The notes beneath the pieces are model-generated. The model saw nothing but the letters and a program-made list of their open reading frames with translations. It searched no databases and had not been told where the DNA came from. From Promethearchaeota archaeon (GTDB lineage: Archaea > Asgardarchaeota > Lokiarchaeia > Sigyniarchaeales > SOKP01), in assembly GCA_029838195.1 (NCBI GenBank), contig JALGVJ010000008.1, positions 70,132 through 134,131 of the forward strand: a DNA stretch of 64,000 bases, written 5' to 3'. How positions within the stretch are numbered: position 1 is the stretch's first letter; every line of letters begins with the position of its first letter. Of the stretch, positions 1,752 to 4,037 are shown in pieces. Made by a program: the position numbers and the translations under genes.

Positions 1752-2057
1752 TTATAGTTTGTTTTCACAGCTCCTCCTTTTCACTTAAGCTACAGATCTT
1801 TTAATTGTTTTTAAAATTTTTTGATTGTACTCAATAAAGATTATTTTAGTGAGAAAACTAGCGTAAATCTCATGATTTATTCTCATTCAATGAAAAAACG
1901 AGGGAGAGCGGAATTTGATGGAATTTAGTATTTATTGAGGCCCATGAAATATTTAAGACTTTTACAATATTCTCGAAATTATTAATAGAAGTGGTAGATA
2001 TTTATATATTTTAATTTTAATATTTAATCTGAAAAAAAAGAAAAATGGTAGGTAAAA

Positions 2058-3774
2058 ATGCCGAGTCAGTGTAAATTCGTGTTCGTGACGGGTGGTGTAA
2101 TGAGTGGTATAGGTAAAGGAGTTGCTACGGCCAGTCTGGGAAAGATCCTTCAATTCCGTGGTTTTAACGTTTCAATCGTTAAAATTGACCCTTATCTTAA
2201 CGTGGACCCCGGCACGCTTAATCCAATAGAACATGGTGAATGTTTTATCACGGAAGATGTATGGGATTTTAAACCAGTTCCCGAATCAGATGAAAAGGTT
2301 TATCGAATATCGGAAATTGACCAAGATTTCGGTACATTCCGTAATGCAATTCGCATGATGAGGTAAACACGAAAGATTTCTTGGTATTGATATTCACCCT
2401 TCCCATAACATTACTTCAGGCCAAATATACCTTGCAACCATTCTCAGAGAGAGAAAGGGAAAATTTCTTGGAAAAACAGTCCAAATAATTCCACATTGCA
2501 CGAATATGATAAAGGAGCGCTTATTAAGCATAGCAGAAAAAGAAGGACTTGAAGTTTTATTGGTGGAATGCGGGGGAACGGTAGGCGACTTGGAATCCGG
2601 GATTTTCCTTGAAGCTTTTAGACAATTAAAATTAGAACTTCCAAAAAACAACACGGCTTTTGTACATGTCACGCTTGTTCCCTATTCCACGGTGATTGGT
2701 CAGCAAAAATCCAAACCGACGCAACATTCGGTAAAAATGCTTCAGAGTGCTGGTTTGCAACCCGATATTTTGATTGGACGGAGCGAAAAACCCTTAGAAG
2801 AGGATATACGGAAAAAATTATCTTTATTCACGAACGTTCCATTGAAGGCAGTCATTTCCAATCCCGATTTGGATTGCGTCTATGAACTACCCTTATTATT
2901 TGAAGAACAATCGATTGGAGATTATTTGTGTGAAATATTGGACTTAAAAGCAAAATTAGTTTCGTTTAATGAGGTTACTAATTTTTCAGAATGGAAAAAA
3001 ACGGTTGATAAATTTAAAAATGCCAAGAACAAAATTAGGATTGCGATGCCAGGAAAATATTTTAACATTACGGATTCATATATTTCGATCAATGAAGCCT
3101 TAGAGCATGCCAGCATTCATCAAGGATTCACAACTGATTTAAAAATGATAAATATTGATGATAATACCAATATTGAGGAAGAGGTAAAAGATTGCGATGG
3201 AATAGTTCTTACTCCGGGATTTGGCAGGAGAGCCGTTGAAGGAATGATCAAGAGCGCTGAAATTGCCATGGAAAAAAAGATACCCTTTTTGGGGATATGT
3301 TTTGGTGCCCAGTTATTTTATGTAGCCTTTTGTAGAAAATATTTAGGTTTAAAAGGTGCTAATTCCACTGAAATTAACCCCAACACGCCCTATCCTGTTG
3401 TTGATTTATTAGAAAGCCAGAAAAACGTGAATGAAAAGGGAGGGACCATGAGATTAGGAGGTTTAAGAGTTATTATCGAAGAAAATACCATACTCCATGA
3501 AGCTTATAAAAAGAAAGAGATAATAGAGCGATTTCGACATCGTTATCACCTCATACCTCAAGGTCATTCGAAAGAAAAAGGTCTTATCGTCTCAAGCTGG
3601 GATGAGGAAAAAAAAATCATAAACAGCATAGAATTGGATAGAAAACTCCATGATTTCATGGTTGGAACGCAGTTTCATCCGGAATTCAAGTCCCGTCCCT
3701 TTCGTGCAAGTCCTATTTATTCTGCTTTTATCAAGGCTTGCATTCAATATAAACAAAAGAGGCAACCTTCTTAA
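2058..3774 (+). CDS. pyrG: CTP synthase, two exons: join(2058..2337,2369..3774), 561 aa after removal of a 31-nt intron
   Basis: [10 protein letters not shown] and [12 protein letters not shown] in exon 1; the join gives DQDFGT-Y-ERFLG; exon 2 continues NITSGQIY...[39 protein letters not shown] in the frame of ORF 2506..3774. Confidence 0.93.
2338..2368 (+). other. Candidate bulge-helix-bulge (archaeal tRNA-endonuclease type) mRNA intron, 31 nt
   Basis: TCCGTAATGCAATTCGCATGATGAGGTAAAC; contains in-frame TAA (2364-2366) and shifts the frame; both ends lie after the 2nd nt of 3-nt bulges flanking a GTAC/GTAA central helix; long exon-exon stem and internal hairpin. Confidence 0.8.
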
Positions 3775-4037
3775 ACCAAGAGTTTTACTATATTATTTTT
3801 CAATTTACGTTAATATTAAGCAAAAAAGCAAGATTCCTACATGTTAATCGCTATCATCCATGAAAGAAAATAGACCGAGGGTTTAAATTTTTAAACAAAT
3901 TTTAAATAAGGCATCGGATATTATCTAATGCTTTTTCTTAAGATTTACTTAAAGATGATTAAGGATTTAATAAAAGGCATGGAAAAAAATAATAGATGCG
4001 GTAAATTTAATATATAAACAATAGAAAAAAAACATCG

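Follow-up and report, generated by a model that had tools for sequence, protein, structure and literature searches.

A probable bulge–helix–bulge intron in the CTP synthase gene of an Asgard archaeon and its relatives

The CTP synthase gene pyrG lies in two pieces across positions 2058–3774 on the forward strand of the window, the 64,000-nucleotide (nt) stretch of DNA analysed here, which comes from a Promethearchaeota MAG of the Lokiarchaeia (G000). An open reading frame (ORF) from 2058 ends at the TAA at 2364–2366, and the remainder of the gene follows in the +1 frame from 2371. A preliminary description had attributed the break to 31 nt (2338–2368) carrying a stop codon and a frameshift, and had reported that their precise deletion gives a protein of 561 residues. 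All of its coordinates proved correct, and translation together with the Pfam layout confirms the protein. In silico removal of the 31 nt joins T2337 to A2369–C2370 as the tyrosine codon TAC, regains the conserved motif GTYERF and gives a product of 93 + 1 + 467 = 561 residues that contains ...DQDFGTYERFLG.... The Pfam domain CTP_synth_N is matched in exon 1 over profile positions 1–62 (E = 4e-30) and in exon 2 over positions 74–265, followed by the GATase domain. From the unspliced mRNA, a 102-residue fragment is the sole possible product. A search for an intact second copy returned no further CTP_synth_N match in this genome (4.5 Mb, 94 contigs, 96.6% complete), in which pyrG is single copy. 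The PyrG proteins of the order have an extra segment (window 2258–2318) between CTP_synth_N profile positions 62 and 74; it lies just 5′ of the intron site and is conserved family-wide. The suspected Asgard origin of the DNA is borne out by the titles of the close relatives retrieved with exon 2 (Promethearchaeota or Promethearchaeia) and by the presence of Promethearchaeum syntrophicum MK-D1 in the same order, whose members also include Lokiarchaeum ossiferum.

Table 1 Coordinates of the interrupted pyrG gene, its predicted fold and the related inserts at other sites. Positions without a prefix refer to the window; a slash within a motif marks a predicted cut or an interruption.
Feature	Position	Strand	Remarks and evidence
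pyrG exon 1	2058..2337	+	93 codons and first base of Tyr codon; ORF, translation
Probable 31-nt BHB intron	2338..2368	+	In-frame TAA at 2364–2366; frame shifted by +1
pyrG exon 2	2369..3774	+	AC of Tyr codon, 467 codons and stop; translation
Outer exon–exon helix h, 5′ strand TTTCG	2327..2331	+	Pairs with 2370–2374; also in MFE fold
Outer helix h, 3′ strand CGAAA	2370..2374	+	MFE fold, 8-genome alignment
Extended outer helix, 5′ strand ACCAAGA	2320..2326	+	Pairs with 2379–2385 across a 4-nt internal bulge; in MFE fold
Extended outer helix, 3′ strand TCTTGGT	2379..2385	+	MFE fold, 8-genome alignment
Central helix H, exonic strand GTAC	2332..2335	+	Pairs with GTAA at 2363–2366
Central helix H, intronic strand GTAA	2363..2366	+	Invariant in 8 genomes
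Bulge 1, AT/T	2336..2338	+	Predicted 5′ cut 2337/2338; BHB geometry agrees with protein junction
Bulge 2, AC/A	2367..2369	+	Predicted 3′ cut 2368/2369; BHB geometry agrees with protein junction
Intron hairpin h′	2339..2362	+	C2339–G2362, A2361 bulged, 2340–2347 paired with 2353–2360, 5-nt loop 2348–2352
pyrG site A	L063:122-196, L064:119-193, L067:122-196, L069:122-196	+	BHB fold
pyrG site A	L065:523-597, L066:515-589, L068:523-597	-	BHB fold
argG BHB intron, 32 nt	G000 C19:88218-88249 (L047:1467-1498)		Splits SGGL/D/TS; genome scan

The RNA around the insert can be folded as a motif of the bulge–helix–bulge (BHB) type, with every helix of the preliminary description found where it had been placed (Table 1). 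Bulges of 3 nt, lying on opposite strands, flank the central helix 2332–2335/2363–2366 in the canonical archaeal BHB topology, an arrangement that is identical in eight genomes, and the adjoining helices pair exon with exon (h) and intron with intron (h′). The central helix is made of three Watson–Crick pairs and a G2332·A2366 mismatch. A strict BHB has four standard central-helix pairs; because the mismatch is invariant, occurring in 8/8 genomes, the pyrG motif is a relaxed BHB. Archaeal EndA cleaves after the second nucleotide of each BHB bulge, and cuts at these places give a functional product in silico; the junction derived from BHB geometry alone coincides with the one that restores GTYERF. 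The fold of the region beats those of shuffled sequences (z of −2.3 to −2.6). The unconstrained MFE structure keeps the exon–exon stem and the hairpin, with the bulges and central helix drawn as an internal loop, and the BHB conformation lies about 8 kcal/mol above the MFE in the genome of the window and 8–20 kcal/mol above it across carriers. A far-outer helix (2305–2313/2387–2395) is not conserved in genus g4 (74% of cells paired). We take the predicted fold of the insert region to be more than chance, the covariation across eight genomes being more telling than z.

The intron site of the window, hereafter site B, was compared across 135 genomes of the family. Eight genomes from four genera have an insert after the same codon (G000 and G001 of genus g1; G010 of g10; G004, G016, G023 and G048 of g4; and G051 of g6), which is 31 nt long in each of them and differs in sequence (eight alleles). 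The site is uninterrupted in about 100 other genomes of the family and, in three further families of the order, in each of the 13 genomes that bear pyrG. In the eight-sequence alignment, both sides have changed in 8 of the 9 pairs of the intron hairpin, 94% of cells are paired and the covariation score was reached by none of 500 shuffles. When 3′ partners were slid by 1–3 columns, pairing fell from 85% to 28–43%. Across the eight genomes, 85% of cells are paired in helix h and 80% in the extended outer helix, which shows a one-base register shift in g4 and g6; the central helix is invariant in its three standard pairs and its G·A mismatch, as is the intronic GTAA. Relatives show both a presence/absence pattern at the same codon and a covarying intron hairpin.

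Alleles identical to those of four MAGs occur in five metagenome contigs, and one allele was found in two separate metagenomes; a pattern scan of metagenomes gave no alleles beyond those known from MAGs. The DNA contigs of four public runs are short and of low depth, and none spans 2284–2347. Where the intron ends on its 3′ side, contigs of two unrelated public runs start, one at 2369 (X2) and one at 2366 (X4); strain variation in the intron may break the assembly graphs there. In a PyrG tree the carriers fall into four groups on a weak backbone, where a single ancient gain with losses is indistinguishable from several gains.

Selection acts on the exons as protein and as RNA. They are uninterrupted in all eight carriers, with 466–481 codons in exon 2, and dN/dS is 0.03–0.11 between carriers versus 0.04–0.08 between intron-less relatives, with synonymous sites saturated between genera. 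The carrier values indicate that pyrG has been kept under strong purifying selection while bearing the intron; a check for relaxed selection found none, dN/dS among carriers being the same as among the intron-less relatives. Two codons in the BHB core, GGT for Gly and ACA for Thr, are each the single codon used in 8/8 carriers, and gene-wide 4.7% of invariant fourfold- or sixfold-degenerate codon columns use one codon across the same eight genomes. At these codons the intron-less relatives have GGT, GGG, GGC or GGA and ACA, ACC, ACT, TCA or TCT. We read the exonic half of the BHB as constrained at the RNA level, and in intron carriers only. None of the eight carriers has an ATG, GTG or TTG in the stretch that runs from the exon 2 frame's upstream stop to the junction; lacking a start codon of its own, exon 2 offers no way to translate the selected ERFLG...HPSHN segment separately.

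We conclude that 2338–2368 is very probably a BHB intron within the pyrG coding region that is removed by EndA and RtcB. This reading, already put forward in the preliminary description, is backed by recurrence, compensatory changes, frozen exonic codons, purifying selection and the missing exon 2 start. By analogy with tRNA and cbf5 splicing, we infer cleavage and ligation of the pyrG mRNA by these two enzymes. As the pre-mRNA folds, exon 1 would pair with exon 2 in the outer helix and four exon 1 bases would pair with the 3′ end of the intron in the central helix, the rest of the intron forming a hairpin. A heteromeric (αβ)2 EndA would then cut both 3-nt bulges behind their second base, at 2337/2338 and 2368/2369, and RtcB would ligate the exons, by which the Tyr codon T/AC and the reading frame would be regained. 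The predicted spliced junction is GGTACAT/ACGAAAGA, and the 31-nt intron would probably be circularised by RtcB as well.

Three matches to tRNA_int_endo are found in the genome, which also encodes a single intact RtcB (L046). A 202-amino-acid (aa) ORF on contig C1 (L043:1459–2067, minus strand) gives a full-length alignment with the catalytic α subunit of the heterotetrameric Aeropyrum pernix EndA (3P1Z_B, E = 6e-36) and conserves the Tyr, His and Lys positions, the His being the residue that is Ala in the mutant entry 3AJV. A 199-aa ORF on contig C8 (L044:1201–1800) encodes a second, more divergent EndA-family protein without that His, which fits an EndA β subunit. Asgard EndA has been described as a broad-specificity (αβ)2 type with an L1 loop that is associated with relaxed-BHB cleavage (PMC5829648), and, as judged from their sequences, the α and β genes found here match this published architecture. 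Contig C53 has a second β-like copy (L045:1492–1974, minus strand) that is split into ORFs of 50 and 106 aa and truncated C-terminally; possible readings are a pseudogene, contamination or a further interrupted gene. ARAGORN identified only 16 tRNA genes in this 4.5-Mb, roughly 97% complete genome, eight of them called with introns. So low a count makes the genome look tRNA-intron-rich and fits heavy non-canonical interruption of its tRNA genes.

Other accounts of the insert were weighed against a spliced intron. A +1 ribosomal frameshift at AGG-TAA-A (2361–2367) would have the insert translated as about 11 extra residues, and the frames can formally be linked between the TGA at 2359–2361 (exon 2 frame) and the TAA at 2364–2366 (exon 1 frame), with a stop codon at that place in 8/8 carriers. 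The resulting protein, however, would lack the universally conserved Tyr and have 11 extra, non-conserved residues within GTYERF, whereas changes inside the insert compensate for one another in RNA pairing and are not protein-like; the hairpin, moreover, lies upstream and not downstream of the putative shift site. Nor can one frameshift rescue the in-frame inserts at a second pyrG site (site A, with 1–2 stops) or the in-frame, stop-containing ones in argG, both described below, yet their BHB geometry is the same. Programmed +1 frameshifting or bypass calls for a slippery or take-off site that is conserved, along with a translated product that agrees with selection; the insert does not show this pattern, and we consider a frameshift highly improbable. 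Translational bypass from ACA 2334–2336 to ACA 2367–2369 was rejected, as it lands in the wrong frame. Group I and group II introns have a ribozyme core of hundreds of nucleotides; a self-splicing intron of either kind was also rejected, 31 nt being too small and Rfam giving no match at E ≤ 1 in 1800–4000.

The gene might instead be a decaying pseudogene, dispensable in this lineage, with the insert as a disabling mutation. The exon 1 match is missing in 24 of the 135 family genomes, and five relatives that are 92–99% complete (G011, G020, G024, G060 and G064) have no CTP_synth_N match at all, which suggests that pyrG may be dispensable in some relatives; in part of the family it may be absent or not assembled. 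Set against this are the lack of further stops or frameshifts in 8/8 carriers and an insert that retains its exact length and covarying structure, while the low dN/dS among carriers, with synonymous saturation between genera, excludes decay, to which we give hardly any credence. That the 31 nt are absent from the real DNA and arose in assembly or sequencing is a thought prompted by the fragmentary public contigs of the four runs, none of which bridges the insert in this strain. Its recurrence in eight independently assembled MAGs as eight alleles of identical length and position, and in metagenome contigs with the same alleles (five contigs, one allele in two separate metagenomes), indicates that the insert is no assembly artefact, and we treat this possibility as negligible. 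Finally, a real insert might be removed or bypassed without EndA and RtcB, by another nuclease and ligase or through two separately translated polypeptides that assemble. The central helix is imperfect, but expression in two pieces would forfeit the selected ERFLG...HPSHN segment, exon 2 having no start codon, and the geometry obeys the rule of EndA cleavage for both cuts and across four independent sites. Such a route is very unlikely.

An EndA-spliced intron in pyrG would not stand alone. The preliminary description had suspected an mRNA-intron system, and further BHB introns are indeed present in argG, in the TFE gene and at pyrG site A of a sister genus, along with a BHB-like insert in the E2 gene. 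At site A, seven genomes of genus g11 have a different insert, 30 nt long and in frame with 1–2 stop codons, which interrupts the P-loop motif GGVMSGI/GKG; the pyrG of the window is intact there. The site A fold comprises a central helix of GGCA with TGCT, bulges TA/A and AT/G and a flush 8-bp hairpin. Its central helix has a compensatory pair in one genome (GGTA with TACT), its hairpin has three covarying pairs with a covariation score reached by 0/500 shuffles, and one allele has a purine–purine mismatch at the central-helix mismatch position of site B. The argG gene for argininosuccinate synthase in the genome of the window has a canonical BHB intron (Table 1), directly after which the Pfam match begins at profile position 12. 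The same site is occupied by 30-nt introns in G006 (genus g6) and G004 (genus g4). There the central helix changes from GTCT with GGAC to GATT with GATC, a change that involves synonymous codon changes and two compensatory pairs, and each of the three carriers has congeners without the intron. In the TFE gene a BHB intron of 30 nt shows an A·G mismatch at the position of the central-helix mismatch in pyrG, and the 31-nt insert in E2 is of ambiguous register.

Genome-wide de novo scans, which required BHB geometry, a hairpin and restoration of the ORF, recovered pyrG and turned up argG. Their counts equalled those of slid-partner controls (about 300 loci each), leaving introns inseparable from chance, and they gave no significant excess of in-frame over out-of-frame joins (at a stricter score, for example, 18 versus 13 and 12). 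A relaxed scan of the 64-kb window found nothing convincing apart from pyrG, and a search for the POR family (PF01558) did not reveal a 29-nt intron in OFOR-gamma. Whether the Lokiarchaeia of this family possess genome-wide, dynamic BHB mini-introns of about 30 nt, in many core protein genes and repeatedly gained and lost at conserved motifs, with pyrG alone offering two independent sites, is a proposal that we hold in even balance.

If pyrG is spliced as proposed, an Asgard archaeon would require a tRNA-endonuclease splicing step to express an essential gene of nucleotide synthesis, and genes of this type in Asgard MAGs would be systematically miscalled as frameshifted or split. For eukaryogenesis, the lineage closest to eukaryotes would be one that tolerates intervening sequences in mRNA and must coordinate splicing with translation, and the origin of intron tolerance would become approachable by experiment with defined substrates and enzymes. 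Should mini-introns prove genome-wide, the expression of central metabolism and of transcription factors in near prokaryotic kin of eukaryotes would routinely depend on mRNA splicing, which would imply that mRNA processing is to some degree separated from translation in time or space.

Archaeal BHB introns in tRNA and rRNA were reportedly described by Marck and Grosjean in 2003. The pyrG intron shares their hBHBh′ architecture, size range and predicted enzymes but is hosted by an mRNA, so its splicing must also restore the reading frame and compete with translation. In eukaryotes, HAC1 and XBP1 mRNAs undergo unconventional splicing by IRE1 with RtcB or Trl1. There, too, an mRNA is cut at two stem–loop or bulge sites by a protein endonuclease and its exons are sealed by a tRNA ligase, with a change of frame; that system, however, has its own nuclease and recognition motif and is stress-regulated, and the pyrG intron does not belong to it. 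A BHB intron of crenarchaeal cbf5 pre-mRNA was reportedly the subject of work by Watanabe in 2002 and Yoshinari in 2006. This cbf5 intron of Crenarchaeota is the closest known system (Yokobori 2009, PMC2738675), and a 2020 study still listed no other reported BHB intron within a coding region of archaea (PMC7714728). Haloferax volcanii HVO_1309 has a BHB intron in its 5′ UTR (PMC7714728), likewise an EndA substrate within an mRNA, but one that lies in an untranslated leader and leaves the ORF uninterrupted. Coding-region splicing by tRNA endonuclease is recorded in searchable papers for one archaeal gene, cbf5, and in Crenarchaeota only (PMC7714728, PMC2738675); none of the searchable papers connects CTP synthase with an intron of this kind, and a 2026 preprint on intron-rich Asgard tRNA genes does not treat mRNAs (bioRxiv 10.64898/2026.10.13.758758).

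The likeness to cbf5 is close. Both genes have a short intron in a protein ORF, inside a codon of a highly conserved motif, and a relaxed BHB in which the frame is regained by cutting behind the second base of the bulge; like that of cbf5, splicing of pyrG would rely on a heteromeric EndA, and patchy presence among relatives is shared as well. As in the cbf5 type, the pyrG intron lies in an ORF under purifying selection, in a genome that encodes a heteromeric EndA. For cbf5, splicing has been demonstrated through cDNA and cleavage in vitro, whereas for pyrG we infer it. The pyrG case differs further in its phylum (Asgard/Promethearchaeota) and its gene, in having two intron sites in sister genera and in the interruption of several other genes of the same genome. 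On this comparative evidence, the 31 nt in this Asgard pyrG are almost certainly a tRNA-type coding-region intron, a new occurrence of a device documented in searchable papers for one other archaeal gene only.
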